Origin: an uncultured Bacilli bacterium | GTDB lineage: Bacteria > Bacillota_I > Bacilli_A > RFN20 > CAG-826 | Direction: 5' to 3' | Assembly: GCA_905236395.1 (NCBI GenBank) | Contig: CAJOPR010000008.1 | Coordinates: forward strand, 1 to 47,972 | DNA length: 47,972 nucleotides | Shown here: positions 7,752 to 25,669 of the stretch, one piece after another | How the letters are laid out: every line of letters begins with the position of its first letter | Numbering within the stretch: position 1 is the stretch's first letter | Notes under the pieces: model-generated | Told to the model about the DNA's origin: nothing | Seen by the model: the letters and a program-made list of their open reading frames with translations, nothing else | Databases searched by the model: none | Made by a program: the position numbers and the translations under genes

Positions 7752-8145
7752 GGGGTCGTATTGGATTCGACAGGGGTGTGCTAGGCTCTAATTGCAGTCG
7801 AGTGATGACGTTATCATCAAAAGAAAAATAACTGACAACAGTTATATGAGAGCTCCTAGAGCTCAATCTCTCTGCTTAGCATAATTGCTCCCGACATAGG
7901 GTACTGGTCTCTTTAGATCAGACAGAGCATCCTCCAAGGTTTTAGCCTTTCACGCTTGGGTAGGGTGTCATACCAAAAGGATAGGAAATAGGAGTGGACT
8001 TGTTACTTGTTTCTGAAATCCGGTAAGTCTCGCGTATTGTAGTGAGTCGATATACGAAAATACGTTAAATATAAATATCGTCTAAACTGTAGACGTTATT
8101 GAAGAGCCATCCTTGGACAGGGTTTCGACACCCTCGACTCCACCA
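7752..8145 (+). ncRNA. ssrA: tmRNA (transfer-messenger RNA) with encoded CCA
   Basis: 5' end is ggggtcgtattggattcgacaggg and 3' end is ggacagggtttcgacaccctcgactccacca. Acceptor stem ggggtcg pairs with cgactcc via one G-U pair. The tag ORF follows aaaataact (compare B. subtilis aaauaac-GGC): gac aac agt tat atg aga gct cct aga gct caa tct ctc tgc tta gca taa (7834-7884), giving (A)DNSYMRAPRAQSLCLA. Confidence 0.9.
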
Positions 8146-8157
8146 GAAGAATATTAT

Positions 8158-8187
8158 TACCAAATCATATGATTTGGTATTTTTCTT
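8158..8187 (+). terminator. rho-independent terminator of ssrA
   Basis: 9-bp stem taccaaatc/gatttggta with loop atat, followed by tttttctt. Confidence 0.7.
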
Positions 8188-8252: not shown

Positions 8253-8507
8253 ATGCCAGTAATATCTAGGTTCTATGGCCTAGTTATTAAGATGTACTTC
8301 TCTCAAAAAGAACACCACCCACCACACATACATGTTAAATACGGCGAATATGTTTGCTCAATCGCAATTGCGGATGGACATATAGTTGATGGCAAACTAC
8401 CGCCTAAAGCATTACTATTAGCTCGCGAATGGTTGGAATTACACAGAGCTGAAGTACAGAAAATATGGGATACTCAGATATTTCAAAGCATCCCGGGATT
8501 GGAATAA
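8253..8507 (+). CDS. DUF4160-family protein (84 aa)
   Basis: MPVISRFYGLVIKMYFSQKEHHPPHIHVKYGEY is the characteristic DUF4160 N-terminus. Strong SD AAAGGAGG lies upstream. Confidence 0.85.
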   Translation: MPVISRFYGLVIKMYFSQKEHHPPHIHVKYGEYVCSIAIADGHIVDGKLPPKALLLAREWLELHRAEVQKIWDTQIFQSIPGLE

Positions 8508-8513
8508 AAAAAT

Positions 8514-8945
8514 ATGTTTCACAAGATAAAAAATGTCGCTGCGCTTAACAATTACTTGTTATCTGTATCCTTTGTTGAAGGAGTCACAAAGATTTATGAT
8601 GTAAAACCACTATTTAAAAAATGGGATGTTTTTAACGAACTCAAAAAGAATGACTTGTTCAAAAAGGTAAAAGTGGACCAAGGCGGATATGGAATCTCTT
8701 GGAATGACGACATTGATTTAGCTTGTGACGAACTATTTTTCGAAGGAAAGTTGGTTCAAAGTCCGTTTGATGGTCTTATAGCTTTTACAGAAGCATGCCA
8801 AATGTGGAATCTTAACGAATCAACATTAAGAAAGGCCGTATCATATGGAAAACTTGTTGATGGTATTGATGTTTGCAAATTTGGCAAACAATGGGTCGTC
8901 ACCATCCAAGCAATGGAAAGAGAATATGGGCCAAGGATTGGATAG
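8514..8945 (+). CDS. DUF2442 domain fused to a C-terminal helix-turn-helix domain (143 aa)
   Basis: The N-terminal ~80 aa match the DUF2442 pattern (LSVSFVEGVTKIYDVKPLF...VKVDQGGYGISWNDDIDLACDELF). The C-terminal FTEACQMWNLNESTLRKAVSYGKLVDGIDVCKFGKQWVV resembles an excisionase/MerR-type HTH. Confidence 0.8.
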   Translation: MFHKIKNVAALNNYLLSVSFVEGVTKIYDVKPLFKKWDVFNELKKNDLFKKVKVDQGGYGISWNDDIDLACDELFFEGKLVQSPFDGLIAFTEACQMWNLNESTLRKAVSYGKLVDGIDVCKFGKQWVVTIQAMEREYGPRIG

Positions 8946-8964: not shown

Positions 8965-8991
8965 AAGCGCTCAAAGAGCGCTTTTTCTTTT
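8965..8991 (+). terminator. rho-independent terminator
   Basis: Stem aagcgctc/gagcgctt with loop aaa, followed by tttcttttg. Confidence 0.75.
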
Positions 8992-9012: not shown

Positions 9013-9021
9013 TGATAAAAT
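9013..9021 (+). promoter_or_regulatory. extended -10 element (TGaTAAAAT) 9 nt upstream of the GT2 ATG
   Basis: There is no SD between it and the ATG at 9031. A weak -35 ttcata lies at 8993-8998. This implies a leaderless or near-leaderless mRNA. Confidence 0.4.
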
Positions 9022-9030
9022 TTATACAAC

Positions 9031-10050
9031 ATGAAAAGAGCAGTTGTATTAATCCCTAGTTATGAACCGGATGACTTATTAGTCAATACAGTTCAAGGAC
9101 TTGTCGATGAAGATTTTCCTGTGCTTGTTGTGAATGATGGCTCAGGACCAGAATTCGAACATGTTTTTGATCAGGTTAAACCAATGGTCAAATATCTTGC
9201 TTTTGAAAAGAATAAAGGCAAGGGTGCAGCGATGAAATACGGCTATAAACATTTACTCGAATTATACCCTGATGCAGAGTTTGTAATTACTGCGGATGGG
9301 GATGGTCAACACGCACTGAAAGATATCATCAGAGTGTATGATAAAATGTGTGAGACAAATCAACTCGTCTTTGGTGTTCGTTCATTTGGTAAAGATGTAC
9401 CATTCCGTAGCAGATTTGGAAATGACTTCTCAAAAACGACTAGATCTCTATTAACCAAAACATATATCCAAGATGACCAATGTGGTTTAAGAGGATTTCC
9501 AGTTAGATACCTTGATCAATTGATTAAAATTAAGGGCAATAGATATGAATATGAGATGAACCAAATTGTCTCTTTCCAAATGATGCAATGCCCTCTATAT
9601 ACAATCCCAATTGAAACCATTTATTTGGATAGTAATTCTAGAAGTCATTTCTCTCCGTTTAAGGATACTTTTAGAATTCAAACAATTATCTTCACTCATT
9701 CCATCGGAGCGATTATTTGTAATGCATTATTGATGGCGATGATGATTATTGGATTGAACCATCATTTGATGCCCACAATTGGTGTGATATATATCTCATA
9801 CACTTTGTGTTTCTTACTATATTTCTTAATCATCAATATCTTCTATCCCACACAAACCTTCTTTAGAAGATTGTTTAAAGAATTACTATTTACTGCAATC
9901 AAGATGGGGAGCTGTCATGGATTCTTATTCTTGATGTTTGATTTAGCCCATGTTCCAGCGGGAGTGTGTGTTCCTATAGGTGTGCTTTTATGCGCATTTT
10001 TGAACGTTTTATTCTCCTGGTTATTTAGAAAGATGTTTCCATCCTTCTAA
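9031..10050 (+). CDS. family-2 glycosyltransferase with a polytopic C-terminal membrane domain
   Basis: GT-A N-terminus AVVLIPSYEPDD, VVNDGSG, KNKGKGAAMKYG and DGDGQH (DxD-type). The last ~120 aa form 3-4 TM helices. Confidence 0.85.
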   Translation: MKRAVVLIPSYEPDDLLVNTVQGLVDEDFPVLVVNDGSGPEFEHVFDQVKPMVKYLAFEKNKGKGAAMKYGYKHLLELYPDAEFVITADGDGQHALKDIIRVYDKMCETNQLVFGVRSFGKDVPFRSRFGNDFSKTTRSLLTKTYIQDDQCGLRGFPVRYLDQLIKIKGNRYEYEMNQIVSFQMMQCPLYTIPIETIYLDSNSRSHFSPFKDTFRIQTIIFTHSIGAIICNALLMAMMIIGLNHHLMPTIGVIYISYTLCFLLYFLIINIFYPTQTFFRRLFKELLFTAIKMGSCHGFLFLMFDLAHVPAGVCVPIGVLLCAFLNVLFSWLFRKMFPSF

Positions 10051-10092: not shown

Positions 10093-10120
10093 TTGAAACA
10101 ATTTATATTAAATATATAAT
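10093..10120 (+). promoter_or_regulatory. candidate sigma-70 promoter for the acylation operon
   Basis: TTGAAA (10093-10098), a 16-nt spacer, then TATAAT (10115-10120). The ATG at 10128 is only 7 nt downstream and has no SD. Confidence 0.45.
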
Positions 10121-10127
10121 TGATAGC

Positions 10128-10790
10128 ATGAGTGTTAAGAGTAAATATAAAGCTCGTGTTATCAAACCCCGTTACATCTTATTTGATATAGCTAGATGGT
10201 CTGGATGGCCATTTTTATTGTGGTATCGAATTAAGAAAGTTTACGAAAACAAAAATCAAAAAAAGAGGATTAAAGGTGGCGCACTTATAGTGTCAAACCA
10301 CATTCTCTACAGTGATGTTATGGTGTTATCTACAGCATTTTGGAAGAGAAGACTCCATTATATGGTTATGAAAGAAATCATGGCGAATAAATTCCTAACC
10401 TGGTTCTACACCCATTGTGGTTGCATTCCAGTGGATAGAGAAAAACCATCTTATAATTCTATTAGAGAAGTCACTCAATTACTTGAAGGTGGTAACGTTG
10501 TTACCGTCTTCCCTGAAGGACATGTCACATTCAAGAATGAAAACCCGATGTCTTCATTCAAAGGTGGTGCGGTCTTAATGGCCTATCAAGCCAACGTACC
10601 CATCATCCCTGTGTATAGGGAAGTGCGTAAGAGCGTGTGGCACAGACAAAAAGTAGTGGTGGGTGAGCCTATTAATCTCAGAGAGAAATTCGGAGAGAGA
10701 ATGGGCATGAAAGAAATAGAAGAGGCCACACAATACCTATTTGATAAAGAACAAGAGTTAAAAGCTCTCTACCATAAGGAGGAGAAGTAA
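10128..10790 (+). CDS. PlsC-family (lysophospholipid-type) acyltransferase
   Basis: HX4D motif NHILYSD (10299-10316), FPEGHV motif, N-terminal hydrophobic segment, 220 aa. Confidence 0.8.
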   Translation: MSVKSKYKARVIKPRYILFDIARWSGWPFLLWYRIKKVYENKNQKKRIKGGALIVSNHILYSDVMVLSTAFWKRRLHYMVMKEIMANKFLTWFYTHCGCIPVDREKPSYNSIREVTQLLEGGNVVTVFPEGHVTFKNENPMSSFKGGAVLMAYQANVPIIPVYREVRKSVWHRQKVVVGEPINLREKFGERMGMKEIEEATQYLFDKEQELKALYHKEEK

Positions 10791-10791
10791 T

Positions 10792-12309
10792 ATGAAATAT
10801 TTAGACAATCCATTCAAAAATTGCACTGACGCGGAAACATTAAAAAGAATTAAATGTTTCGATAGCGTTAACGAGATGTGGGCAAACTCCGTTAAAGAGT
10901 TCGCTAGTCAAGTCGCTTTAGCGGATCCAACAAGACAACTCACTTACAGTGAATTAGACGCTGAAGTTGCAAAATTCCGTTCAGTTTTAAAGGCTAACGG
11001 TTTAGCGAAAGGTGATTTTGTTGGTGTTTACGCCCCTAACACACTTGAATGGGTAAAAGCTTATTTAGCGGTTTCAACTTTAGGTTGCTGCGCAGTTTTA
11101 CTTCCACCTCATTTACCAGAACAAGCCTTGTTCGGCTGTGGAATGAAATTCCAAATGAAGGCTATTGTCTATCATCCAGCTTTGCAGGCAAAAATTGATG
11201 CACTTAACGCAATGCCTCACAAGATGAAACTTATCAATGTGATGGAAACAAGCGCTTCTTTAGAACCCGCTGTAGAAGTTGGTCCAAAAGATCCAGCGGT
11301 TATTATCTTCACAGGTGGTACAACTGGTAAGAGCAAGGGTGCTTTATTAAATCATAAGGCATTAGCGAGAGGCACATGCAATGGTTGTTATGGTATTCCA
11401 AATGTCTTTAACCAAAGATATTTGTTAGTCCTTCCATTAACACATGTATTTGGTTTAGTGAGAAACTTATTAACCAACTTACAAACTGGTAGTGCATTAT
11501 TCATCTGCCAAAACAATAAGGATATGTTTAAGGACATCGCTGTCTTTAGACCAACAATTATGGTTATGGTTCCCGCTTTAGCGGAAATGTGTTTGAACTT
11601 ATCCAAACAATTTAAGAGAAATATGTTAGGTGATTCCCTAACTCACATTATATGTGGTGCTTCCACAGTTCCTCCATACTTAGTGAAGGAATATAAACAA
11701 TATAACATCACCTTATTACCTGGTTATGGTTTAACCGAATCCGCCAACTTGGTTTCTGGCAACCATAGAAGTGATTACAAACCAGCATCCGTTGGTTTCC
11801 CATATCCAGAACAAGAACTCAAAGTAGTGGATGGTGAACTCTGGATTAAAGGTGATAACGTTATGGATTGCTACTATAACGATCCAGAAGAAAATGCAAA
11901 TGCGTTCTCTGAGGACGGATTCTTTAAAACAGGTGACCTTGTCAGATTTGATGAAGAGGGCTTCTTATTCATCGTTGGAAGAATCAAAGAAATCATCGTT
12001 CTCCCCACTGGAGAAAAGATTTCTCCATTTGATTTAGAGAACAAATTTGATGAATTAGATATTATCCAAGACTGTATGGTTTATCTTAATGAAGAAACTG
12101 GTGCGTTAGAGATTCAGGTGTACCCACGTATGCTCGAAATCGCTAGACTTGGATTAAGCAATCCTGAAGAATATGTCCGCGAGGAAGTGAAAAAAGTAAA
12201 TAATTTATTACCTTCTCATATGAGAGTTAGTAAAATTGTTATAAGAAAAGAAGACTTTATTCGTACCCCAGCGATGAAAATCATCAGAGGAAAGGCTAAC
12301 GCTTTATGA
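10792..12309 (+). CDS. fatty-acyl-AMP ligase / acyl-carrier-protein synthetase-like adenylating enzyme
   Basis: ANL-superfamily motifs FTGGTTGKSKGA, LPGYGLTE, FKTGDLVRFDEEGFLFIVGRIKE and a C-terminal PAMKIIR Lys. GYGLTE is typical of fatty-acyl rather than D-Ala/amino-acid activating members. Confidence 0.85.
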   Translation: MKYLDNPFKNCTDAETLKRIKCFDSVNEMWANSVKEFASQVALADPTRQLTYSELDAEVAKFRSVLKANGLAKGDFVGVYAPNTLEWVKAYLAVSTLGCCAVLLPPHLPEQALFGCGMKFQMKAIVYHPALQAKIDALNAMPHKMKLINVMETSASLEPAVEVGPKDPAVIIFTGGTTGKSKGALLNHKALARGTCNGCYGIPNVFNQRYLLVLPLTHVFGLVRNLLTNLQTGSALFICQNNKDMFKDIAVFRPTIMVMVPALAEMCLNLSKQFKRNMLGDSLTHIICGASTVPPYLVKEYKQYNITLLPGYGLTESANLVSGNHRSDYKPASVGFPYPEQELKVVDGELWIKGDNVMDCYYNDPEENANAFSEDGFFKTGDLVRFDEEGFLFIVGRIKEIIVLPTGEKISPFDLENKFDELDIIQDCMVYLNEETGALEIQVYPRMLEIARLGLSNPEEYVREEVKKVNNLLPSHMRVSKIVIRKEDFIRTPAMKIIRGKANAL

Positions 12310-12557
12310 GTAGAAACGAAATATTTAACAAATTAAAAGAACTCATTAAATTAGCAAATTCAAGTAATCCAGAAGTTCTAGATTCTTGTAGTGAAGAATC
12401 AGACTTAAGAGGAGATCTTGGATTAACATCTATCGGTGTTTTATATCTCGCAATTTCAATCGAACAAGAATTTAATATTGAATTCACCGATTCATCTTTT
12501 GATGATTTTACTAAAGTAAAAGACGTTATTGATTACATCGAAAAGAATCAGAAATAA
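12306..12557 (+). CDS. acyl/peptidyl carrier protein (83 aa)
   Basis: GDLGLTSIGVLYLAISIEQEF matches the DLGxDSL phosphopantetheine attachment motif (Ser42 codon at 12429-12431). ATGA overlap with the ligase gene. Confidence 0.75.
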   Translation: MSRNEIFNKLKELIKLANSSNPEVLDSCSEESDLRGDLGLTSIGVLYLAISIEQEFNIEFTDSSFDDFTKVKDVIDYIEKNQK

Positions 12558-13132
12558 TGGAAAAATTTGTCGCTATATATTTTGCCCATATTCCCTTTCT
12601 CTGTGATGGATATGTTCCAGATATCAGAAAGAAAGAAATTGAATCTTGTAACAATTTCAAAGTGAAACAAGAAAAGTTTTACATTTGGAAGTTACTAGAA
12701 ACCGCGATTAAAGAATGCTTTGGTGTCGATCCAAAAGAAGTAGTCTTTACTAAGTTAGATAATGGCAAATGGGTTTGCGATAGATGTTTCTTCTCCTTGT
12801 CGCACAGCCATGGTATTGTATGTGTTGCGGTCAGTGATGCCTACGTCGGTGTGGACATTGAATACATGGACACGAAGAGACATCCATTAAATCTCGTTGG
12901 TAAAACAGTTCATAAGAACGAGAAGTGTGAAACAGAAAATGATTTCTTCCCGTTATGGACAATGAAAGAAGCGTGGTTCAAATATTCAAACGATAATAAC
13001 TTCGTTCCAAATAAGATTGATACCACCGCGTTAACAAATGTGAAGACCGATTATCTTAATATCGGCGCTGAAAGATATGTTTGGAGTGTTGTCGGAGACA
13101 ACATTAACAATATAAAAATTTATTTTAAATAG
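12557..13132 (+). CDS. Sfp-type 4'-phosphopantetheinyl transferase
   Basis: GVDIE and WTMKEAWFK motifs, 191 aa. The start shares a base with the carrier-protein stop (TAATG). Confidence 0.75.
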   Translation: MEKFVAIYFAHIPFLCDGYVPDIRKKEIESCNNFKVKQEKFYIWKLLETAIKECFGVDPKEVVFTKLDNGKWVCDRCFFSLSHSHGIVCVAVSDAYVGVDIEYMDTKRHPLNLVGKTVHKNEKCETENDFFPLWTMKEAWFKYSNDNNFVPNKIDTTALTNVKTDYLNIGAERYVWSVVGDNINNIKIYFK

Positions 13133-13155
13133 GTCATAAATTGGAGGTAACTATT

Positions 13156-14088
13156 ATGGCTAATTATATTATTCTCTCTGATTCCTGCATGGACTTAAAT
13201 GCAGAAGAGAGAAAACAGTTCGGTATTGAAAAACCAGTTCCTGGTTCAATTCTTTACCCAGATGGTGCAGACCATCAAGCAGATATCGATTGGGAAACAA
13301 TCACGTTCGAAGATTTCTATCATCGTTTAGACAAGAAAGAAGTCTTTAAAACAGGTTTACCAAATCAATACCTTATTGGTTTAAGAGCGGAAGAAGCTTT
13401 CAAAGAAGGAAAAGACGTTCTCGCTATTACACTTTCTAGTGGTATGAGTGGAACATTCAACGCCTTCCTTATCGCTAAAAACGAATTAGAAGAAAAATAC
13501 CCAGGTAGAAAATTACTTGTCGTTGACTCTAAACGTTATAGTGGTGGTATTTCTATGCTTTGTATCGCCGCAAGCGAAAACCGTAAAGCTGGTATGTCCA
13601 TTGATGAAAACTACAATTTCTTAATGGAAAAGAAAATGTGCTTACACCAAATTGGTATTTTAGATAACTTATTCTTCTTACACAGAAGTGGTCGTATTAG
13701 TTATGGCAAAGCTTTCTTTGGCTCCATGGCTGGTGTTAAACCAATGGCGGATTTCTCCAATGAAACCGGTATGCCATGTGTCTTAGGCAACGCCAGAGGA
13801 TATAAAGCTTCCTATAAAGTGGCAAAAGAATTTATGTCCGCTTTAATTGAAAAAGATCCAAAGTACTTAATCGTTGTTCACAGCATCAGAGAAGAACAAG
13901 CGAAAGAGTTTGAAAAGATCGCAAAAGAAGTCGCTCCAAAGGCTGAAGTCATCGTTTCCCGCATGGGTCAATCAAACGGTGTTAACGTCGGTCCAGGCTT
14001 AGCCGTTGTCTTCTTCTTCGGTGAAAAACCAGTCAGTAAAGATTGTGAAGAAGAAAGAGCACTTTTAACTCAAATTTTGAAGAAATAA
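13156..14088 (+). CDS. DegV-family fatty-acid-binding protein (divergent)
   Basis: YIILSDSCMDL start and AITLSSGMSGTFNAF motif. GGAGG lies 8 nt before the ATG at 13156, so the listed 13141 TTG is unlikely. Confidence 0.8.
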   Translation: MANYIILSDSCMDLNAEERKQFGIEKPVPGSILYPDGADHQADIDWETITFEDFYHRLDKKEVFKTGLPNQYLIGLRAEEAFKEGKDVLAITLSSGMSGTFNAFLIAKNELEEKYPGRKLLVVDSKRYSGGISMLCIAASENRKAGMSIDENYNFLMEKKMCLHQIGILDNLFFLHRSGRISYGKAFFGSMAGVKPMADFSNETGMPCVLGNARGYKASYKVAKEFMSALIEKDPKYLIVVHSIREEQAKEFEKIAKEVAPKAEVIVSRMGQSNGVNVGPGLAVVFFFGEKPVSKDCEEERALLTQILKK

Positions 14089-14100
14089 TAAGGTTTTGCA

Positions 14101-15087
14101 ATGATTTTGCCCGTAATTCAAGCAAATTTACTATGGTATCACTGGCTTATAATTGGAGTCGGAATTTTCATTTTTGTTTCGCTTGTCGTCGGCATTGCCT
14201 TGATCGTGGAGACCGCTAGACGTGTGTATCTTCACACCTTATCAAAGAGAATGGCGAAAGAGGGAAGCTGGGGAAGAGTTTGCTCCGCTCCAGATAACCC
14301 AGAACAGATGAAAATGTGGAACGACGGCATTGAATACATGTCCCAATTCCAAGATAAAAAAGAGGACGTCCAAATTGAAAATGATGGACTCAAACTTTAT
14401 GGTGAGTTCTACAATTTTGGCGCCAAGAAAACCGCTCTATTCTTGTGTGGTAGATGCGAATGCTTGATGTACGCTTACTACTATGCAAAACCATATATCG
14501 AATCCGGTTTAAATGTTTTGTTCATCGATCCAAGAGCCCATGGCTTAAGCGATGGTGAGTTTTCCACAGTTGGTATCAAAGAAAGTGAAGACGCCTTGGC
14601 ATGGATGAAATATTTAAAGGAAACCAAAGGGCAAGAAAAGTTTGTTTTACACTGTCTCTGTGTTGGTGGTTCCGCTGGTTTATTAGCGGTCACAAGCAAA
14701 AATAACACCGACTTAGTGGAAAAGATTGTCTTAGATGGTGTCTTTATTAACTTCTTAGATTCCTATAGAAGACACTACGTGGATTTAGGCCACAAAGTAT
14801 TTCCAGTTTTTTACCTCATCTGGATGTGGTTCAGAATCTACACTAAAGTGTCCGTCAAACAATCTTCGCCAATTAATCTAGTTCCAAACGTTCATATTCC
14901 TGTCCTTTTTATTCACACAAGGAATGATAAATTCTCTGTTCCAGAAAACGCTGTTAAGGTGTTTGATGCTTGCGCCAGCAAAGAGAAAACCTTTGTTTGG
15001 TTTGATGAAGGAACTCATTCCCATATCAGAAATCATGCGATGGCAAAATATGATAGTGCTATCAAAGATTTTTTGACAAAAAAGTAA
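14101..15087 (+). CDS. membrane-anchored alpha/beta-fold hydrolase/acyltransferase with Cys at the nucleophile elbow
   Basis: N-terminal TM helix and PRAHGLSDGEF. The nucleophile-elbow position reads LHCLCVGGSAG, with Cys codon 14659-14661 where GxSxG Ser is expected. Downstream candidates are Asp (HTRNDKF) and His (EGTHSH). Confidence 0.75.
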   Translation: MILPVIQANLLWYHWLIIGVGIFIFVSLVVGIALIVETARRVYLHTLSKRMAKEGSWGRVCSAPDNPEQMKMWNDGIEYMSQFQDKKEDVQIENDGLKLYGEFYNFGAKKTALFLCGRCECLMYAYYYAKPYIESGLNVLFIDPRAHGLSDGEFSTVGIKESEDALAWMKYLKETKGQEKFVLHCLCVGGSAGLLAVTSKNNTDLVEKIVLDGVFINFLDSYRRHYVDLGHKVFPVFYLIWMWFRIYTKVSVKQSSPINLVPNVHIPVLFIHTRNDKFSVPENAVKVFDACASKEKTFVWFDEGTHSHIRNHAMAKYDSAIKDFLTKK

Positions 15088-15127
15088 TTACTATGTAATA
15101 TAAACTCTCCTAATGAGGAACCAATTT

Positions 15128-15979
15128 ATGAAAATTGCTATTTCTACAGAATCAACATTAGATATCCCAAAGGAATTACAAAAAGAATACGAAATATCCG
15201 TTATTCCATTCACTGTTATCCTAGGTGATGAAAGTGGTCTTGATGGAGAAATTACTCCACAAGATATCTTTGATTTTGTTGATAAGACTGATGTCTTACC
15301 AAAAACCAGTGCGATTAATGAGTATCAATACGATAAACATTTCACAAAGCTTCTTAAAGAATATGATGCTATCATTCATATTTCATTAAGCTCAGGCATT
15401 TCTTCTGCTTGCGCTAATGCACAACACGCAGCATCTATCTTAAAGAATGTTTATGTCATTGACTCCCAAAGTCTTTCTAGTGGTATTGCTTTATTAGCCA
15501 TTTACGCTCGTAAGTTAGCTAACAAAGGTTTAACCCCAGAAGAGATCGTGGAAAAAGTGGAAGCAAGAGTTCCATTTGTGCAAGCTAGCTTTGTAATTAA
15601 TTCTTTGAATTATTTATATAAAGGTGGTCGTTGTTCTGGACTTGCTAGATTCTCCGCAATGCTATTCAGAATCAAACCACAAATCATCGTTAAAGATGGC
15701 AAGATGATGCCACAAAAGAAATATCATGGTAAGAGTGAAGTCTGTGTCCAACAATATTGTGAAGACACACTCACTGAATTCAATAATCCTGATTTATCAG
15801 TAGCGTTTGTGACACACAGTCACGCTACAGAAGAAATGAGGAAGATTGCTTATGACTTCCTTAAGGAACGTGGATTTAAGAAAATCTATGACACATACGC
15901 GCAAGCGACAATCACTTCGCACTGCGGTCCAAAGACATTAGGCATTCTCTTCATTAATGATGGGTTGGAAGATGATTAG
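15128..15979 (+). CDS. DegV-family fatty-acid-binding protein
   Basis: MKIAISTESTLDIP, LPKTSA and HISLSSGISSACANA are canonical DegV motifs. GAGGA SD precedes the ATG at 15128. Confidence 0.85.
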   Translation: MKIAISTESTLDIPKELQKEYEISVIPFTVILGDESGLDGEITPQDIFDFVDKTDVLPKTSAINEYQYDKHFTKLLKEYDAIIHISLSSGISSACANAQHAASILKNVYVIDSQSLSSGIALLAIYARKLANKGLTPEEIVEKVEARVPFVQASFVINSLNYLYKGGRCSGLARFSAMLFRIKPQIIVKDGKMMPQKKYHGKSEVCVQQYCEDTLTEFNNPDLSVAFVTHSHATEEMRKIAYDFLKERGFKKIYDTYAQATITSHCGPKTLGILFINDGLEDD

Positions 15980-16000
15980 CCCTTAAGGGCTTTTCTTTTT
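15978..16000 (+). terminator. rho-independent terminator ending the lipid module
   Basis: Palindrome agccc-ttaa-gggct followed by tttttcttttt. Confidence 0.6.
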
Positions 16001-16026: not shown

Positions 16027-16632
16027 TTATTTGTTTTTCTTACTGTTCTTCTTTAAGAAGTACCAGAGAATTGCTAATCCTTCTAGTGGCACCCCAATGG
16101 TGAATAATAACCACGCATTAGGAATATCTGTTTTTAAGATCACTGTGAGGAATACTGATGTAATAGTGCACCAGATAATTCCGGATGTCGCTATTAACTG
16201 ATAGAAATTCTTATGATAGATTCCTGACCAAACCACCGCGAGAATGAATGCTGCAGCGGACGCATAGACGAATAATAGCCACCAAGGGAAGAGATTTGGT
16301 AAGGCGATGGATAAAATCACATACGCTAGTCCAAACACGAGCCAGAGAAGCGCTTCGCTTAATCCAACAATAAACCAATGCTTCTTTGTCTTGTTCTTTG
16401 GAAGCTTTTTCTTTTCTTCTTGAAAAAAGTCATCCACGGTAATGCCATAGAAGTCTGCGAGAGATTTTAAAACTAAAACATCCGGCATGCCTTCCGCTCT
16501 TTCCCATTTAGAGATGGATTTATCAGAGTAGTTGAATTTCTCTGCGATCTCTAATTGGGTAAGACCTGCGGCCTTGCGGTAGTAGATGAGATTCTCAGCA
16601 ATAATGTCTTCGATACGTCTTTCTTCTTGCAT
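16027..16632 (-). CDS. membrane-tethered XRE-family HTH transcriptional regulator
   Basis: HTH_3 motif LIYYRKAAGLTQLEIAEKFNYSDKSISKWERAEGMPD followed by 4 TM helices. ATG at 16632 is preferred over the listed TTG at 16650. Confidence 0.8.
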   Translation of the reverse strand: MQEERRIEDIIAENLIYYRKAAGLTQLEIAEKFNYSDKSISKWERAEGMPDVLVLKSLADFYGITVDDFFQEEKKKLPKNKTKKHWFIVGLSEALLWLVFGLAYVILSIALPNLFPWWLLFVYASAAAFILAVVWSGIYHKNFYQLIATSGIIWCTITSVFLTVILKTDIPNAWLLFTIGVPLEGLAILWYFLKKNSKKNK

Positions 16633-16744
16633 AGCATATATAATATACAACGATTTTTAATTTAGGCAACCAAAATCAACCGCCATTATTTATAATGGAG
16701 CGGCAAATCACACTCATAGTATTACATAGTAAAACAGCCTTTTT

Positions 16745-17082: not shown

Positions 17083-18549
17083 ATGCGCATGGAACAAGCA
17101 GAAGCGAAACCCAGAAAGATAATTGATCTCACAACTTATGGAACAGTCGTGGGATTTTTATGTATTGAGGTATTAGCCTTAATATCCTTTTATCTAGGAC
17201 ACTCATTCCTTTTATACGGAATTCTTTCTGTTGTCTTAGTGGCTTTATTACTTTTAGTTACATTTAGACAGATTAAAAAAGATGGCATTACAACATTTGC
17301 TTTCTTCTTATTCCCAGTATTTGTATTTGGGTTATTAACCGCGTTAAGCCAATTCAACTATTCATCAGTTGGCGCGATTGGTGTAGCGGAATCTGTTTTT
17401 GTTCCTATTGCTCTAACTTGTTTAGGCCTTGCTGGATTCCTTTCTTCATACATTAAAGGATTCAAAATTAAACAAGTGATGATTGTTATCTATGGAGCTT
17501 TAGCGATCTTTGTTCTTATAAACTTGTTTATAACAATGATCTATTATGTGCCGTTCTACACATTGATTTATAAGAATTCATATATTGTTTATAACGGCAA
17601 ACCATCAGTTCTACCTATTGGTAGCATGGCATATATGCTCTTTGGTTTCCAAGTGGAAGAAGTGACAATTGAATATTGGTCTTTATTCCCTTCAATTTTA
17701 TTAACATCTGTCATCCCATTATTCTTTATTAAGTTTAAAGAGAATAAGAGAGACTTCTTAATTTACTTAAGCTACGCAGTCTTAGCGTTCCTCTCATTAT
17801 TATTTACTATTAGTAAATACACGATTATCACTGACGTGGTCTTAGTGATGGGTATCGCAATTATTGTTCTTGCTGGAAAGATTAAGAAATCACGCGATAT
17901 CTTAAACGGCATGATGATTGCCGCTGGTATTATCCTCGTTCTTGTTTTGATTTTTGTTTTCTTAATCGCTCAAACAAGTTGGGGATTCACCGCAGGAATT
18001 AAAAACTTCATTTCAAGTAAAGAGATACTAAATAGGTTATTCATCGCAAACAGATTTGCTTCTAAAGCTATTGTGATATTCCAAGACCTATTCTCATCAT
18101 TTAAATTATTCGGTGTCCCAGTTGGTGGATACGATTATTTATACCCCAATGGAGTGCAACAAGAAGTATCCAATATCTGGTTATTTGATAATTTATTATC
18201 AAGTGGCCTCTTTGGTGCGGTTTTCTTCTTGGGTGCTTTAGTCATCGGCATTAGAAGATTATTCAAGTATTTAAAAGAGAATGAGGATGATGAAAGTGAT
18301 CGTTATTTGATCGCTGGTTATGTTCTCGGTTTCTTAGCAGTATCCTTATTGCTATTTAGTTATAGACCTTTGGTCAACTCTGATAAATTATTCCCATTCT
18401 TTACCTCATCACCATTATTAGTGGCCATTTTCTTATTAGGTTACACATTTAATAGGACCATTAAGGTTAAAGAAGAGGAACCAAAACCAGCTGAAGAAGT
18501 CAAAGTAGAAGTGGAGGAAGAGAAAGATGAAAAAGTTATCACACTTTAA
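17083..18549 (+). CDS. polytopic membrane protein, O-antigen ligase/polymerase-like (Wzy_C-type), function tentative
   Basis: At least 10 TM helices. The late loop FGVPVGGYDYLYPNG...SNIWLFDNLLSSGLFGAVFF resembles the G-x-G...HN-x-L...E-x-G segment of the O-antigen ligase family, but with FDN replacing HN. The tail is K/E/P-rich. Confidence 0.6.
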   Translation: MRMEQAEAKPRKIIDLTTYGTVVGFLCIEVLALISFYLGHSFLLYGILSVVLVALLLLVTFRQIKKDGITTFAFFLFPVFVFGLLTALSQFNYSSVGAIGVAESVFVPIALTCLGLAGFLSSYIKGFKIKQVMIVIYGALAIFVLINLFITMIYYVPFYTLIYKNSYIVYNGKPSVLPIGSMAYMLFGFQVEEVTIEYWSLFPSILLTSVIPLFFIKFKENKRDFLIYLSYAVLAFLSLLFTISKYTIITDVVLVMGIAIIVLAGKIKKSRDILNGMMIAAGIILVLVLIFVFLIAQTSWGFTAGIKNFISSKEILNRLFIANRFASKAIVIFQDLFSSFKLFGVPVGGYDYLYPNGVQQEVSNIWLFDNLLSSGLFGAVFFLGALVIGIRRLFKYLKENEDDESDRYLIAGYVLGFLAVSLLLFSYRPLVNSDKLFPFFTSSPLLVAIFLLGYTFNRTIKVKEEEPKPAEEVKVEVEEEKDEKVITL

Positions 18550-19426
18550 GTTATTATTAATCGCACCTACACTTGTTTTGACTGCCTGTGGTTATGGTTT
18601 AAAAGAAGTTTATGAAGGCATTCCATATAACTCCTCCAACTTCTTTGAAAACTATTTCAATGAATGGAATTCACAAATTAATCCATATGATAGCAATAAC
18701 AGAATCACAGATAAGAAAGATGTCTATTCTTTGAATAGTGATACTGATAGAGTTTTCACTTCATTAGATGACGTGAACTTCCGCGATTGCGATCCAAATT
18801 GGAATAATTACGCATACACGTACGATAAAGAGAATCCGGATGATGGAACTTTAGCGTATGGTCCCGCAGTTTGCTTAGCTAAAGCCAATAACTCATTTAA
18901 ATATGGTATTACATCGAAGATGTTTGATGGACAGATGTTCTGCAATGGCGACTACCAAAAATCCAGAACACAAGTCGAACCCACAAATCATGGTGAAAGC
19001 AAAGGCTTTGGTGTTTTATTCTCCAAAGAATGTAATAATCCATCATATTTTATGATGAACTTCAAATGTTCTGTTGTTTTAGCCGATAATCAAAACTTAA
19101 GATCCGGCTTAAGCAATCTAAAGATTACAGTCAGCTTTGTTCTAAAGAACGATATAGGATACACATACGTGCCTGTAACGTACACCGTTAATGAAGTACC
19201 CACAAACAGTGGTGATGATCATTTCGTTCCTCCATATTCTGGAAGAAAAGAAATGTACACATGCTTTGGCTTTAAATTAGATAATCTCAATTTAGATAGA
19301 TTGATTGGTTTTACCATTCAATATGAAAAAATCTCCGACACCGTTTCGCCTACATACGAAGGTCAGGAGACATATCATGCGATGATGCTTTACGAAGTAA
19401 GCTTCCCGCACACTACTTGGCATTAA
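18527..19426 (+). CDS. lipoprotein (299 aa), family not recognised
   Basis: Signal peptide with lipobox LVLTAC. It overlaps the upstream membrane-protein gene by 23 nt. Confidence 0.8.
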   Translation: MKKLSHFKLLLIAPTLVLTACGYGLKEVYEGIPYNSSNFFENYFNEWNSQINPYDSNNRITDKKDVYSLNSDTDRVFTSLDDVNFRDCDPNWNNYAYTYDKENPDDGTLAYGPAVCLAKANNSFKYGITSKMFDGQMFCNGDYQKSRTQVEPTNHGESKGFGVLFSKECNNPSYFMMNFKCSVVLADNQNLRSGLSNLKITVSFVLKNDIGYTYVPVTYTVNEVPTNSGDDHFVPPYSGRKEMYTCFGFKLDNLNLDRLIGFTIQYEKISDTVSPTYEGQETYHAMMLYEVSFPHTTWH

Positions 19427-20357
19427 TATACTTACTTATATCTAGCCACTTGCCCATTTCAAAGTCGCATTGATCATCATCTAAAATCAATGTGCCTTTT
19501 GCGGGTGTGAAAGTCATTTCGGAAAAATAAATTTTTCCGTTGATGTTATATAGATCCACTCTAACAAATGGGAAAGGTTGAGATAATATCTCTGCCATTT
19601 CAACCATATCATCCCAGTGGTCCGGTTTCTTTAATGGATAATCTGTCTTTTTCCAACCATTGAATTGACTGCCATCAAATGGTGTCCAGTCGATGTAATA
19701 GTTGTTGTATCTAATATCAATTCCACGTGATGTAACAACGTACATGCTACGTGCTTTTCCATTGAAAACATGAATCTTATATTCGATTGGTAACTTGCCA
19801 TCTTCTTCCAAATATTTCTCAATAATAATCTGTGGCTTTATTGGAGCGTAGTGGAGTTCAACAGTCTTTTTGCCATAGTTAGTTTTGAGCCACTTATCGA
19901 ATTTCTTCTTCAATTCTTTGAGGTTAATTTTGCTCTTATCTAAACATATGTAATTGAAAGCACATGCATGGGTGCATTTCATTACAAATTGGTTTGGCAA
20001 TTTATCAAAATCAATATCATCAAATCTATCAAAAATACCATAAATTGGTATTAATTTGTCCGCAAAACCGCGCTTATTTAGATATTCTCTGACTCCAGCA
20101 CGTCCTGCACATTGAACGACAAGAGGATCTTTTGGATAGACAAATAATCTGAGATATTGGAGCTTCTCAGTGTATCTGGTTGGGTTCTTCAAATCACATT
20201 TATGATGGGTAATATATTTATATTGAGATTTGACGTACCAGGTTTTAGAAATAGCTTTCACTAAACCACGAAAAGGGACGACGAGCGCTCTTTTAAATTT
20301 GTTTTCTTTCAAGTTAGGATTTGGCATAACTTTTCTCTTTATTAAGTATATTCTCAT
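19413..20357 (-). CDS. TupA-like ATP-grasp enzyme
   Basis: YTEKLQYLRLF, DKLPNQFVMKCTH, KFDKWLKTNYG, KPQIIIEKYLEE..IEYKIHVFNG and FVRVDLYNINGKIYFSEMTFTPAKG match the TupA-type ATP-grasp family. The start could instead be the Met11 codon. Confidence 0.8.
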   Translation of the reverse strand: MRIYLIKRKVMPNPNLKENKFKRALVVPFRGLVKAISKTWYVKSQYKYITHHKCDLKNPTRYTEKLQYLRLFVYPKDPLVVQCAGRAGVREYLNKRGFADKLIPIYGIFDRFDDIDFDKLPNQFVMKCTHACAFNYICLDKSKINLKELKKKFDKWLKTNYGKKTVELHYAPIKPQIIIEKYLEEDGKLPIEYKIHVFNGKARSMYVVTSRGIDIRYNNYYIDWTPFDGSQFNGWKKTDYPLKKPDHWDDMVEMAEILSQPFPFVRVDLYNINGKIYFSEMTFTPAKGTLILDDDQCDFEMGKWLDISKYINAK

Positions 20358-20885: not shown

Positions 20886-23288
20886 ATGAAATCAAAAGTA
20901 AATGCATTAATGATTCTCGCATTATGCGGCATGCTTGCTGGTTGTAACGCCACTAAATATGGCACCATTGGTGAAGGTGATACTCCATATTCACAATTAG
21001 TCGGAAGAACCTCCAAGCTCTCTTATGATACATTAGCGGTAAGTGGTATCGGTTCGTTGAACTACTTATCCTCATCAGAAGCTGCTGATGCTGGTCACTT
21101 CGCCAACTTTATTGATGGTTTAGTGACACACAATGAATTCGGTATCTTGGTGTTGAATCTTGCGGAATCCGCAACACATGACGCTGATTATAAAGAATTC
21201 ACATTCAAACTTAGATCCGACAAACACATCGTCTGGTCTAACTACAAAGGCCAACCATACAAATACAATGGTCAAGTGCAATACGTCAAAGCATCCGACT
21301 TTGTCTCCGGTGCGAAAGCTGTTTCCACCTTCTCAACAGGTTCTAACACTTTCTACTTAGTTAGAGATTTCGTCTCCGGTGCCGCTGAGTATTACCTCTA
21401 CACCAGAATTCTTGATGGTAAAGCCAAAGGTAACAAACAATTCACCAATTTGAAGACAAATGACCAAATGGCCAACTGGATTCAAACACAATTATCCACA
21501 GACGCTAACTACAGAACGGCTTACACAGCTGGTGGTTATGCGGATAACCCATTAAAGGGAAGCGATATTCCAAACATCGCTAATGGTAGCAGATTTGGTG
21601 TTCAAGCTAATGATGAAGAAAGAACAGTCAAGTATACATTATTGAACTCTTCAATGTACTTCCCAACCATGCTCACCTATTCTCCATACCTCCCAGTGAA
21701 CCAACACTTCTTAGATGAAAAAGGTAGTGCCTTCGGTGTTGCAAAAGTTGATGCAATCCTCTATAACGGACCATTTATCTTAAACAAGATGGACGAAACC
21801 AAGATCATCTACAAGAAGAATGCTGAATACGTCCAACGTGAAGCATTAGAAGGTTTCCAAAAACCACGTGTTGATACAGTTAAGATTAACTTAGTCAAAG
21901 CTAATATTGACGCAACATACATCAGAAACCAATTCGAGAACGGCCGTATCGATGGCTTCTCTCTCGATCCATCTGACTCCGTCGGTTGGAAGAAATATGT
22001 TACAGGCGCTGATGGCAGTGGTGACAAAGAAAATCCAGTCAATGGTTTAGTCAACTCTCGTTTATTAGACACAATCGGTAGTTGCTATGGTACAAACATC
22101 GTTATGGAACGTACCAAGAATGCTACAAGTAAGAAATCTTACAGCAATTCATCCACAACAACTTCAGTCGCTAATACTGAAAAAGCATTAAGACTTGAAG
22201 ATGTTAGAAAAGCCATTATGGCTTCCTTCGACTACACCGAGTACTATTCACGTAAGAACCCAGACGGTAAGAACCCAGATTTAGCAACTCAAAACCTCGT
22301 TCATACCTATGTTCCAAAGAACTTCGTCTATGACGATAACGGTGAAGAATACACAGATTACTACTATGCTCAAGCTTTAGCCACCAAACGTGGTATCACA
22401 TTAGATGAAGCAAGAGCGCAAATCGAAGTTGGTCAATATGCCACACGTGAAAAGAGTGATGAAGCAGTTGCTGAGTATGTCGATAAGGCTTTAGCAGCAG
22501 TCACTGCTTACAATGAATCTGCCGTTGCCGCTCAAGAAGGCTATGGTCAAATCTCACTCCCAATCATCGTTGAGTATTACTCACCATGGTTCGACCAAGA
22601 ATCCAAACTCTATGACACCTCAATGATCAATGAGATGAATAGACGTCTTAATAAGTTAGCAGAACAAGCTACTTCTGATACACAACTTCAATACTTCAAA
22701 GTTGTCCCAACAGACAAGATTACTGAAAGTAACTATGAAGATGTTAGCGGAAGTAATGGTGGACACGCTGCATTCGACTTCGCTGCAGTCCAATGGGGTT
22801 GGGGCGCAGACTACGGCGATCCATTAACATATATGAACACCTACACCAAGAATGGTGACTGGGGCGGTGTCTTCGACTTTATCGGATACGACTACGTTCC
22901 AAACATCAAAGTTGAAGGTAATACTGTTACTGAGTCTGACTTATTAGCTCACTACACAGAAATCGTTAGAGATGGTGCGGAAATCAATGACAACTTAACA
23001 GACCGTTACACCAAGTTCGCGGAAGCGGAAGTTGAACTCATTGAAGACTTAGCTATCTATTTGCCACAAGTCAACTATGGACAAGGTTGGTCCTTATCAG
23101 TTTCTAAATCTGCTGGCTACGAAATGCCAACAGCTAACTATGGCTTATCCAGCGATCGTTTAACCGGTATGTGGATCCTCAAAGACCCATTAACCCGTGT
23201 TGAACGTAAAGAAATTCGTGATGAATACGAAGCAAAGAAAGCTGAATACAAAGCCAGCCACCCAGCCATTGACATCTATGGCGAATAA
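20886..23288 (+). CDS. oppA: ABC transporter substrate-binding lipoprotein, oligopeptide-binding (family 5), unusually large (800 aa)
   Basis: Lipobox GMLAGC and SBP_bac_5-like core, directly upstream of oppBCDF. Confidence 0.8.
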   Translation: MKSKVNALMILALCGMLAGCNATKYGTIGEGDTPYSQLVGRTSKLSYDTLAVSGIGSLNYLSSSEAADAGHFANFIDGLVTHNEFGILVLNLAESATHDADYKEFTFKLRSDKHIVWSNYKGQPYKYNGQVQYVKASDFVSGAKAVSTFSTGSNTFYLVRDFVSGAAEYYLYTRILDGKAKGNKQFTNLKTNDQMANWIQTQLSTDANYRTAYTAGGYADNPLKGSDIPNIANGSRFGVQANDEERTVKYTLLNSSMYFPTMLTYSPYLPVNQHFLDEKGSAFGVAKVDAILYNGPFILNKMDETKIIYKKNAEYVQREALEGFQKPRVDTVKINLVKANIDATYIRNQFENGRIDGFSLDPSDSVGWKKYVTGADGSGDKENPVNGLVNSRLLDTIGSCYGTNIVMERTKNATSKKSYSNSSTTTSVANTEKALRLEDVRKAIMASFDYTEYYSRKNPDGKNPDLATQNLVHTYVPKNFVYDDNGEEYTDYYYAQALATKRGITLDEARAQIEVGQYATREKSDEAVAEYVDKALAAVTAYNESAVAAQEGYGQISLPIIVEYYSPWFDQESKLYDTSMINEMNRRLNKLAEQATSDTQLQYFKVVPTDKITESNYEDVSGSNGGHAAFDFAAVQWGWGADYGDPLTYMNTYTKNGDWGGVFDFIGYDYVPNIKVEGNTVTESDLLAHYTEIVRDGAEINDNLTDRYTKFAEAEVELIEDLAIYLPQVNYGQGWSLSVSKSAGYEMPTANYGLSSDRLTGMWILKDPLTRVERKEIRDEYEAKKAEYKASHPAIDIYGE

Positions 23289-23325
23289 CATTAATCGGTT
23301 TTAATCGATTCTATCAAACTAAAAT

Positions 23326-23362
23326 ATTAGGGCAACGGGAGATTTAATCTCCCGACCCTAAT
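23326..23362 (+). promoter_or_regulatory. intercistronic hairpin between oppA and oppB
   Basis: Outer stem attaggg/ccctaat, inner 8-bp stem cgggagat/atctcccg, 3-nt loop, and only a weak T-tract after it. Confidence 0.45.
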
Positions 23363-23388
23363 TTACTGCATTATAAGGAGGTAAGAAA

Positions 23389-24573: not shown

Positions 24574-24586
24574 AAAGGAGGCTAGT

Positions 24587-25654: not shown

Positions 25655-25669
25655 AAGGGAGGTTTGTTT

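Follow-up and report, generated by a model that had tools for sequence, protein, structure and literature searches.

The 47,972-nucleotide stretch of DNA analysed here (positions 1 to 47,972 of contig CAJOPR010000008.1 from an uncultured Bacilli bacterium; hereafter the window) carries four packed genes on the + strand, which encode a putative acyltransferase (AT), an adenylating ligase (LIG), an acyl-carrier-type protein (ACP) and a 4'-phosphopantetheinyl transferase (PPTase; PPT in gene orders), and which are considered below as a candidate system for the use of exogenous fatty acids. A preliminary description of this DNA had placed the four in one coupled operon. The same open reading frames (ORFs) are called again by an ORF finder, with the junctions it had given, namely a 1-nt gap between AT and ligase, an ATGA overlap between ligase and carrier, and a shared A within TAATG between carrier and PPTase. 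Its motif positions are likewise borne out, HILYSD of the AT (H58 to D63) lying at 10299-10316 and the other motifs being present, and profile searches assign all four core ORFs to Pfam families above the gathering score:

10128-10790, + strand: PlsC-fold (GPAT/LPLAT superfamily) acyltransferase, 220 aa (PF01553, 8.8e-26)
10792-12309, + strand: ANL-superfamily adenylating ligase, 505 aa (PF00501, 2.4e-66, and AMP-binding_C_3)
12306-12557, + strand: dedicated 83-aa carrier protein, putative phosphopantetheine site Ser42 at 12429-12431 (PF00550, 6e-9)
12557-13132, + strand: Sfp/AcpT-type 4'-phosphopantetheinyl transferase, 191 aa (PF01648, 1.9e-6, 28.3 bits against a cutoff of 25)

Relatives were searched in a one-genome-per-species collection, in which 390 stretches encode one, and the best 80 of these 390 were examined. 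Neighbourhood counts are from unbiased clustering of all ORFs in 82 loci (L numbers); in these loci, genes were called with a simple six-frame finder, which leaves starts and some lengths approximate.

The AT contains the motif NHX4D (NHILYSD) and FPEG, which are kept in at least 90% of 77 orthologues. It scores 90.9 bits on the curated PlsC domain model TIGR00530 (under the cutoff of 102.95), 86.9 bits on the Aas-type (LplT-Aas) model PRK08633 and 18.2 bits on the E. coli-type PlsC model PRK15018, and by curated models it is a protein that shares the PlsC fold but is not a canonical PlsC. The only PDB sequence match is the PlsC of Thermotoga maritima, whose structure (5kym) is also the best Foldseek match of the AlphaFold2 (AF2) model (pLDDT 77.4; E 3e-8, TM 0.56), followed by GPAT, LpxM and PatA; helices 14-25 and 27-33 of the model form the N-terminal two-helix element. 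No close named PlsC from cultured organisms was found for the AT, the nearest named protein being 32% identical.

The ligase contains TGGTTGKSKG, GYGLTE, TGD and GRIKE, and the ANL core motifs and Lys496 are invariant among its orthologues. The best curated models are those of long-chain fatty-acid-CoA ligases (206 bits, every one below cutoff), and the top PDB sequence match is FadD13 (4e-34). The AF2 model (pLDDT 85) has a compact ANL fold, which lies at much the same distance from FadD13, 4CL, oxalyl-CoA ligase, luciferase and FadD10. The enzyme is predicted to be an acyl-carrier-protein synthetase for fatty acids. It had been called a fatty-acyl-AMP ligase, a name that fails in the strict FAAL sense: the enzyme is FadD13/4CL-like, its residues 48-419 aligning to residues 42-432 of FadD13 with no extra segment, and FAAL identity was rejected for want of the FAAL-specific insertion in the N-terminal domain, as judged from alignment length only. 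Orthology with Aas was also rejected, as the AT reaches 37.9 of the 886 bits that NF005959 demands and, on NF006386 with its cutoff of 1221, the AT scores 86.9 and the ligase 112 bits; there is no AasS entry among the best 60 PDB sequence matches of the ligase. Fusions of AT and ligase in the Aas order occur in P0074 (726 aa), P0076, P0096, P0102, P0109 and P0119, and these, together with synteny and a paralogue that is an adenylation-carrier (A-T) didomain, suggest that the acyl-adenylate is transferred to the holo-carrier and not to CoA.

The attachment serine is invariant in all 82 carriers compared. The carrier falls below every curated ACP cutoff (TIGR00517, 42.2 vs 70.45; the best model, PRK12449, 53.9 vs 70), and its family motif DLGL[NST]S[VI]GxLYxVIAIEE (LTS-IGVLYLAISIE in the window) replaces the DSL and acidic helix II. 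Compared with E. coli AcpP, it is about 25% identical and has a net charge of -8 vs -15. An exhaustive HMMER search of 1.84 billion proteins yields only 645 representative clusters that match the carrier, and nearly all of the matches are free-standing proteins of 80-86 aa, the rest being tandem-ACP proteins. No fab gene lies beside the carrier, and no gene for fatty-acid synthesis of the type II kind (FASII), plsX, plsY, fakA or acpP turned up when the window and 10 kb on either side of it, 68 kb of a source contig of 128 kb, were scanned in all but a few small ORFs, in agreement with the earlier remark that the window holds no FASII gene. The preliminary description had allowed that the carrier might simply be the housekeeping AcpP of the cell; by scores, motif and helix II it is not a canonical AcpP.

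The PPTase contains VGVDIE and WTMKEAWFK, where the family consensus is VGVDxE and WTxKExxFK. Its NCBIfam matches, all weak, are to AusB, HetI and AcpT models, and residues 25-146 align to residues 26-159 of Sfp (1qr0; E 2e-3). The size fits the two-subdomain Sfp type (~190-240 aa) and not the 120-aa AcpS. Its substrate would be the adjacent carrier, given the stop/start overlap of the two genes and the co-occurrence of the two families in 57 loci (window included).

The core is flanked and followed by further features:

9031-10050, + strand: GT2 glycosyltransferase with a hydrophobic C-terminal region (PF00535; weak matches to polyprenyl-phosphate glycosyltransferase models)
10093-10120, + strand: sigma-70-type promoter, TTGAAA-16-TATAAT (11/12 match)
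13156-14088, + strand: DegV/FakB-type fatty-acid-binding protein 1, DegV1 (PF02645, 7e-42; TIGR00762, 164.5 bits against a cutoff of 99.7)
14101-15087, + strand: membrane-anchored alpha/beta hydrolase (HYD) with a Cys nucleophile elbow, HCLCVGG (Hydrolase_4, Abhydrolase_1)
15113-15979, + strand: DegV/FakB-type fatty-acid-binding protein 2, DegV2 (PF02645, 2.2e-55; TIGR00762, 209.6 bits against a cutoff of 99.7)
15978-15991, + strand: intrinsic terminator, AGCCCTTAAGGGCT then a T run, which closes the unit
16027-16650, - strand: XRE-type helix-turn-helix (HTH) domain fused to a multi-transmembrane (TM) domain (HTH_3, 1.5e-12), convergent with the operon

In the best 80 relatives, all of which are metagenome-assembled genomes (MAGs), the cluster is found in a Bacilli clade, in many Clostridia (Oscillospiraceae, Christensenellaceae, Lachnospiraceae, Ruminococcus, Ca. 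Scatosoma, Ca. Coproplasma and Faecousia) and in one Treponema. Ligase protein searches return more than 2,000 clusters at 90% identity, which carry generic automatic names such as 'acyl-CoA ligase' or 'AMP-binding protein'; a cultured host was sought in these searches and in the genome scan, and only MAGs, none labelled as an isolate, were found. The Bacilli clade consists of uncultured MAGs from ruminant guts, recorded as 'Bacilli bacterium', and in it the locus occupies one constant chromosomal site with the constant gene order GT2-AT-LIG-ACP-(PPT)-DegV-HYD-DegV-HTH. Within this clade the ligase is 75-86%, the carrier 78-84% and DegV2 about 80% identical, while the AT, at 59-62%, is conserved less than any other gene of the core. 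DnaB, GdpP and L9, taken as the baseline of conservation, are mostly 71-86% identical, and since ligase, carrier and DegV2 lie in the same range, the operon genes are judged to be real.

Across the 82 loci, LIG is found in 78, AT in 73 and ACP in 71, where many of the gaps are contig ends, and AT-LIG-ACP stand in the same order and on the same strand in nearly all loci. The preliminary description would have been undermined had the genes never been co-localised in related genomes; they are co-localised across classes and phyla, with overlapping or abutting start and stop codons in relatives as in the window. The clustered genes are nearly all co-directional and fixed in order. PPTase and/or LRAT (NlpC/P60) genes are present in 66 loci, alpha/beta hydrolases of three families in 46, a ~640-aa MFS_2/GPH-type transporter in 41 (a PDB sequence search with the 658-aa MFS protein gave no matches), DegV in 25 and full-length FakA in 15. 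DegV and HYD accompany the core in distant lineages, and the DegV1 type recurs in the clusters of Clostridia and Treponema, adjoining FakA. What the analysis shows directly is the presence and coupling of the genes, their intact catalytic motifs, their folds, the fusions and a conserved synteny that takes in the Fak genes.

In its expanded form the block reads A-T didomain ANL, [MFS], AT_b, AT, LIG, ACP, LRAT::PPT, HYD, DegV, [MFS], FakA, HYD; plsX and plsY were sought inside these expanded blocks and none was found. FakA and FakB lie inside the co-directional block in 15 species. One of them is represented as follows:

L084, 5707-7374: full-length FakA beside a DegV1-type FakB, co-directional with the AT-LIG-ACP core

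The others are L038, L039, L042, L046, L049, L050, L055, L070, L072, L073, L081, L083, L085 and L086. The A-T didomain protein (L005, 1305-3227; about 45 loci) is a second ANL enzyme, 21% identical to the ligase, with a C-terminal carrier domain bearing GGSS, and it is paired with a second PlsC-type AT (AT_b) in most Clostridia clusters; as this paralogous ANL carries a fused carrier domain in the same clusters, ANL-to-carrier loading appears to be a local theme. The accessory genes are lipid-related, comprising LRAT/PLAAT-like and TMEM164-family proteins, the MFS_2-type transporter and the three alpha/beta-hydrolase families. Block ORFs that had lacked an identity were resolved as CE4 deacetylases, Zn-ribbon membrane proteins, a carboxylesterase and an adenylation-carrier-condensation (A-T-C) protein. 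In Treponema sp. UBA4307 (L072) the order is AT_b-AT-LIG-ACP-HYD-DegV-FakA-HYD-CE4 deacetylase-GT2, and its ligase is 53% identical to that of the window, which, together with the presence of the cluster in a spirochaete, implies transfer between phyla.

Several of these partners merit separate mention. The bacterial TMEM164-family membrane proteins lie upstream of some clusters (L005, 365-1075; L035, 7397-8179), and a human member of the family is an ether-phospholipid acyltransferase (bioRxiv 10.1101/2022.07.06.498872). Directly upstream of the cluster in L073 (852-5521), and likewise in L085, stand a 996-aa A-T-C protein of NRPS-like type, which resembles a fused version of the fatty-acid-amide CTA system, and a carboxylesterase of 559 aa. 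Small proteins are encoded 3' of the cluster (L066, 16639-17196, 23 loci; L085, 16829-17434, 9 loci), which start with a zinc ribbon at the N-terminus, continue with a linker of Pro/Gln-rich repeats and end in TM helices, with weak matches to DUF7139 and DUF4190. In L005 (8240-9244) and 49 other loci, an LRAT domain (NlpC/P60, a PLAAT-like acyl-Cys enzyme) is fused to the Sfp-type PPTase. We know of no description of such an LRAT::PPTase fusion.

The PPTase is in fact unevenly distributed. It is encoded in cis in 4 of the 10 Bacilli-clade loci (the window and three further loci with the PPTase alone). Outside this clade it is found in 53 loci, made up of the 50 LRAT::PPTase fusions and 3 with the PPTase only, while 8 loci have the LRAT protein only (~140 aa) and 13 have no PPTase next to the carrier. 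The system had been described as self-contained with its own PPTase; in the window the PPTase is indeed coupled to the carrier, but strict self-containment is not a property of the clade.

The transcription unit is probably larger than the four coupled genes first described. Strong terminators stand at 8965-8983 and 15978-15991, and the unit therefore probably comprises the seven genes AT-LIG-ACP-PPT-DegV-HYD-DegV, ending at the latter; the coupling of the four stands, and their limit as an operon probably does not. The promoter TTGAAA-16-TATAAT reported earlier is confirmed as the joint best across the scanned 7.9-kb region, in which, AT-rich as it is, promoter-like sites are overall no more numerous than expected by chance. 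Its -10 box ends 7 nt 5' of the AT start codon with no Shine-Dalgarno motif there. Most Bacilli-clade relatives (L003, L008-L011 and L015) likewise have a -10-like box 6-9 nt 5' of the AT start and lack a Shine-Dalgarno motif, though no such box is evident in L013 or L014. With the -10 box so close, the Shine-Dalgarno motif absent and the arrangement recurring in relatives, the AT gene is probably leaderless, while the downstream genes are preceded by Shine-Dalgarno motifs (aaggagg ahead of the ligase). A possible internal promoter (TTGACA-17-TAATAT, 15073-15101, 10/12) precedes DegV2. In an Rfam scan only a tmRNA was found, and no riboswitch or leader upstream of the operon.

The likely start of DegV1 is the ATG at 13156, with GGAGG ahead of it, although the ORF finder extends the gene to a TTG at 13141. 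The PDB matches of both DegV proteins are DegV and FakB proteins. The hydrolase has a nucleophile elbow of the form G-x-[C/S]-x-G-G, with Cys in 26 and Ser in 12 of 38 homologues, and the Asp and His are conserved; its PDB match is the esterase 5g59 (5e-10), and it is a candidate lysolipid esterase, thioesterase or transacylase. The elbow also resembles the boxes of dienelactone hydrolase and PHA synthase. Basic residues cluster just after a single N-terminal TM helix, and by the positive-inside rule the catalytic domain would therefore be cytoplasmic.

We lean, with modest assurance, towards reading the operon as a carrier-dependent module which incorporates exogenous fatty acids by an Aas-like logic, with separate proteins and a dedicated carrier. 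For the substrate, the loading of carrier in preference to CoA, the acceptor and the parts played by the DegV proteins and the hydrolase, we infer the following scheme. The Sfp-type PPTase, or another PPTase in relatives without it, would convert the apo-carrier to the holo form at Ser42, whereupon the ligase would adenylate a free long-chain fatty acid and attach it as a thioester to the holo-carrier instead of CoA. The DegV/FakB-type proteins, probably made from the same transcript, may pass fatty acid on, while the membrane-anchored Cys-hydrolase may release fatty acid from, or exchange it with, complex lipids. The AT, docked at the cytoplasmic membrane face, would then move the acyl group onto a glycerolipid hydroxyl, most likely of a lysophospholipid or 1-acyl-glycerol-3-phosphate. 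The central proposal made earlier, of an unfused Aas-like pathway, holds as far as sequence can carry it, in view of the protein families, their co-localisation, the AT::LIG fusions and the ties to FakA/FakB and lipid genes; by curated models the ligase is not an orthologue of Aas or AasS.

The closest parallel is E. coli Aas, in which a PlsC-type AT precedes an ANL ligase in the same N-to-C order (an arrangement fused also in the relative P0074), and with which the predicted chemistry from free fatty acid over acyl-carrier to lysolipid is shared; the MFS transporter and Hydrolase_4-type esterases of relatives recall LplT and PldB. Aas is, however, a single polypeptide where the window has two separate ORFs, and the window has a dedicated non-AcpP carrier, often with its own Sfp-type PPTase, which argues against the use of AcpP. 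The transporter of relatives is of the GPH/MFS_2 type and missing from the window, and the hosts are Gram-positive-type Firmicutes. As the proteins lie far below the curated Aas models, the system is regarded as analogous, not orthologous, to Aas.

In other systems, too, a ligase and a carrier of their own work together with a transferase, a logic that the window system matches. In sphingolipid-producing Proteobacteria, AasR long went under the name of acyl-CoA synthetase but was shown to charge no carrier other than its cognate AcpR, channelling free fatty acid into sphingolipid synthesis (PMC9386255). It resembles the window in having an ANL enzyme beside a specialised small ACP and a lipid-building transferase; it differs in that this transferase is the PLP-dependent SPT and not of PlsC fold, that taxa and product are different, and that AcpR keeps the acidic helix II which the window carrier is without. 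OaaA/OaaACP/OaaC make fatty-acid amides in gut Clostridia (PMC13310621, PMC13060934) and likewise comprise a free-standing activating A protein, an ACP and a transferase, in gut Firmicutes and with diet- or host-derived fatty acids. As compared by description, their transferase is an NRPS condensation-domain protein, the products are amides with small amines and the order is C-T-A, whereas the window has a HX4D O-acyltransferase fold in the order AT-A-T-(PPT), with PF01553 as transferase and no PF00668 (condensation) domain in the window. Vibrio harveyi AasS and chlamydial AasC also load fatty acids onto ACP at the expense of ATP for phospholipid acyltransferases (PMC12086093, PMC6167442), but use the housekeeping AcpP and are not encoded beside a carrier and PPTase. 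Enterococcus faecalis AcpB is an auxiliary ACP for exogenous fatty acids (PMC6509188), and thus a second atypical, Fak-associated ACP for such acids in Firmicutes; it is loaded via PlsX from acyl-phosphate and not, as predicted for the window carrier, by an ANL ligase, and it has no adjacent AT or PPTase. With AasR, OaaA/OaaACP/OaaC and the auxiliary ACP of E. faecalis as precedents, the Aas-like reading is reasonable.

Some points weigh against this reading. The ligase is under every curated cutoff and about equally far from fatty-acid, aromatic-acid and oxalate ligases, so that its sequence does not fix its substrate. The AT, below the curated PlsC-domain cutoff and with no close named relative, could have an acceptor other than lysophospholipid. 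The exhaustive search with the carrier gave no LIG::ACP fusion in its best 150 relatives, the PPTase is cleanly missing from 6 of the 9 other Bacilli-clade loci examined, and the window has no transporter, while the MFS proteins of relatives are of the GPH/MFS_2 type and not LplT. Lastly, where Fak and LIG/ACP activation stand side by side, the carrier branch could serve a product other than bulk phospholipid.

The same genes could instead be housekeeping. Were the organism without FASII, as many uncultured gut Firmicutes are (PMC6784871), the operon could be its main route to phosphatidic acid and the carrier its only ACP, not a private one; the ligase would then replace PlsX and the AT would be the PlsC of the cell (sn-2), with FakA/FakB and PlsY elsewhere acting at sn-1. 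We regard this as doubtful. It is in keeping with the lack of FASII, plsX and acpP in the 68 kb of contig, although 68 kb of genome cannot establish the absence of FASII, with the conservation of ligase, carrier and DegV2 at the level of DnaB, GdpP and L9 at a constant chromosomal site, and with the two FakB-type genes in the operon and FakA in the block of 15 relatives. On the other hand, the carrier is without the acidic helix II that canonical ACP partners use, the AT has diverged more than the other core genes and none of the named PlsC proteins is close to it, and the cluster is also found in Oscillospiraceae, Lachnospiraceae and Ruminococcus MAGs. These lineages normally possess FASII and a canonical PlsC, and the extra ATs, second ANL enzyme and transporters there make the cluster look auxiliary. 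That every host seen is an uncultured MAG again suits a housekeeping role, as does the lack of FASII in RF39 and reduced Christensenellales, where the lipid route is only presumed (PMC6784871, PMC12306168). Taxonomy entries for Ca. Scatosoma, Ca. Coproplasma and Faecousia say nothing about reduction of their genomes.

Alternatively, the acyl-carrier may feed a non-phospholipid acceptor in the making of a dedicated surface or signalling lipid, candidates being a glycolipid or lipoteichoic-acid anchor, a sugar in a glycan attached to polyprenyl or diacylglycerol, and a small alcohol or amine. A GT2 gene stands directly upstream in all Bacilli-clade loci, GT2 and a CE4 deacetylase belong to the Treponema block, CE4/DUF3473 deacetylases are also found in L018, L039 and L042, and polysaccharide genes lie nearby in the window; but most clusters have neither GT2 nor CE4, and a promoter separates GT2 from AT. 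The GPAT/LPLAT fold includes the sugar- and lipid A-acylating PatA and LpxM, both among the fold matches of the AT, whose best fold and sequence match is nevertheless PlsC. Dedicated carriers are typical of specialised lipids (NodF, AcpXL, AcpR (PMC9386255) and the fatty-acid-amide pathway (PMC13310621)), and the A-T-C gene adjoins the cluster in L073 and L085, whereas the recurrent FakA, FakB, LRAT and hydrolases point to fatty-acid/phospholipid turnover. On this evidence a specialised product is considered quite unlikely. It is very improbable that the neighbours are coincidental, the ligase being an ordinary acyl-CoA synthetase while carrier and PPTase serve an unrelated pathway: the public names suggest as much and specificity for CoA or carrier is unreadable from sequence, yet the same generic annotation of AasR masked a carrier-specific synthetase (PMC9386255), AT::LIG fusions exist, and order, strand and overlapping codons are kept across Bacilli, Clostridia and a spirochaete, on which synteny this explanation was rejected. 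Barely conceivable is a DltA/DltC-like system, in which the ligase would load D-alanine or another amino acid for the modification of teichoic acid or lipid. The sizes are similar (DltA ~500 aa, DltC ~80 aa) and the generic amino-acid adenylation model TIGR01733 gives 142 bits; the fatty-acid ligase models score far higher (206 bits), however, no DltA model is among the best 25 NCBIfam matches and no DltA among the best 60 PDB sequence matches, and DltA is fold match 46 at 18% identity. The operon has no DltB (MBOAT) or DltD; its transferase is of the PlsC type, with DegV, and in relatives FakA, beside it. Amino-acid activation was thus rejected on profile, sequence and fold ranking, and the grouping with DltA that the preliminary description had named as speaking against it was not found.

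Beyond the Aas-like module itself, a wider role may be proposed tentatively, although we consider it doubtful: that the core with FakB, FakA, Cys/Ser hydrolases, LRAT-type acyl-Cys enzymes, the MFS_2 transporter and the TMEM164-family protein would be the principal route of membrane-lipid assembly and scavenging in fatty-acid-auxotrophic uncultured gut Firmicutes, independent of PlsX and FASII, making phospholipid out of fatty acids and lysolipids from host, diet or neighbours, with a carrier that talks only to these enzymes. DegV proteins might there deliver fatty acid both to FakA and to an ANL ligase. If true, it would explain how membranes are made without FASII and what cultures must be given.

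No published description of the AT-ligase-carrier(-PPTase) architecture was found in a literature search, and by curated models it is neither a member of the Aas family nor canonical PlsC, AcpP, FAAL or DltA/DltC. The use of external fatty acids by rumen and gut anaerobes has been described as largely unexplored (PMC12394162), and it has been flagged as notable that abundant uncultured gut lineages have lost FASII altogether, with a mechanism only presumed (PMC6784871). Broadly distributed, conserved and hitherto without annotation, the cluster is a candidate for fatty-acid use in such FASII-less lineages, and its interest lies in its breadth in uncultured gut Firmicutes, the FakA/FakB linkage, the unusual carrier and the question of membranes without FASII. 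If confirmed, it would be a fourth architecture for fatty-acid salvage and a marker for lipid auxotrophy in MAGs, with hints at supplements for cultivation. The core consists of three or four small soluble or peripheral proteins and is therefore directly reconstitutable.

Of the flanking genes named in the preliminary description, the GT2, two DegV proteins and Cys-hydrolase are all present, but the GT2 is a partner only in the Bacilli clade, where all loci have it, and in the Treponema locus (261 aa), the Clostridia loci being without it. A weak hairpin and the promoter stand between GT2 and AT, a PDB sequence search with the GT2 gave no matches, and its link to the acylation system is uncertain. 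The GT2 gene may be leaderless too, as a -10-like TAAAAT ends at 9021 and the ATG is at 9031. The HTH-TM gene is kept at the same position in the clade (68-72% identity), and its product is a candidate membrane-bound regulator.

The window is otherwise ordinary chromosome, with GdpP, L9, DnaB, tmRNA, an Opp transporter, polysaccharide genes, TsaD, AsnRS and PcrA. Between the tmRNA (7752-8145), whose predicted tag peptide is DNSYMRAPRAQSLCLA in the window and in L003, and the GT2 lies a DUF4160/DUF2442 pair (8253-8945), which resembles a small toxin-antitoxin or phage-derived pair. In L003 the tmRNA (7783-8176) is followed directly by the GT2 (8246), and the pair is thus a small insertion at the 3' side of ssrA. 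At 17083-19426, two conserved proteins (488 and 299 aa) with no Pfam match are syntenic in the clade and adjoin an ATP-grasp TupA-like gene (19413-20357, - strand). The Opp-type oligopeptide ABC transporter operon (20886-27828) is followed directly by a gene (27828-29966) for a BspA-type leucine-rich-repeat protein of 712 aa.

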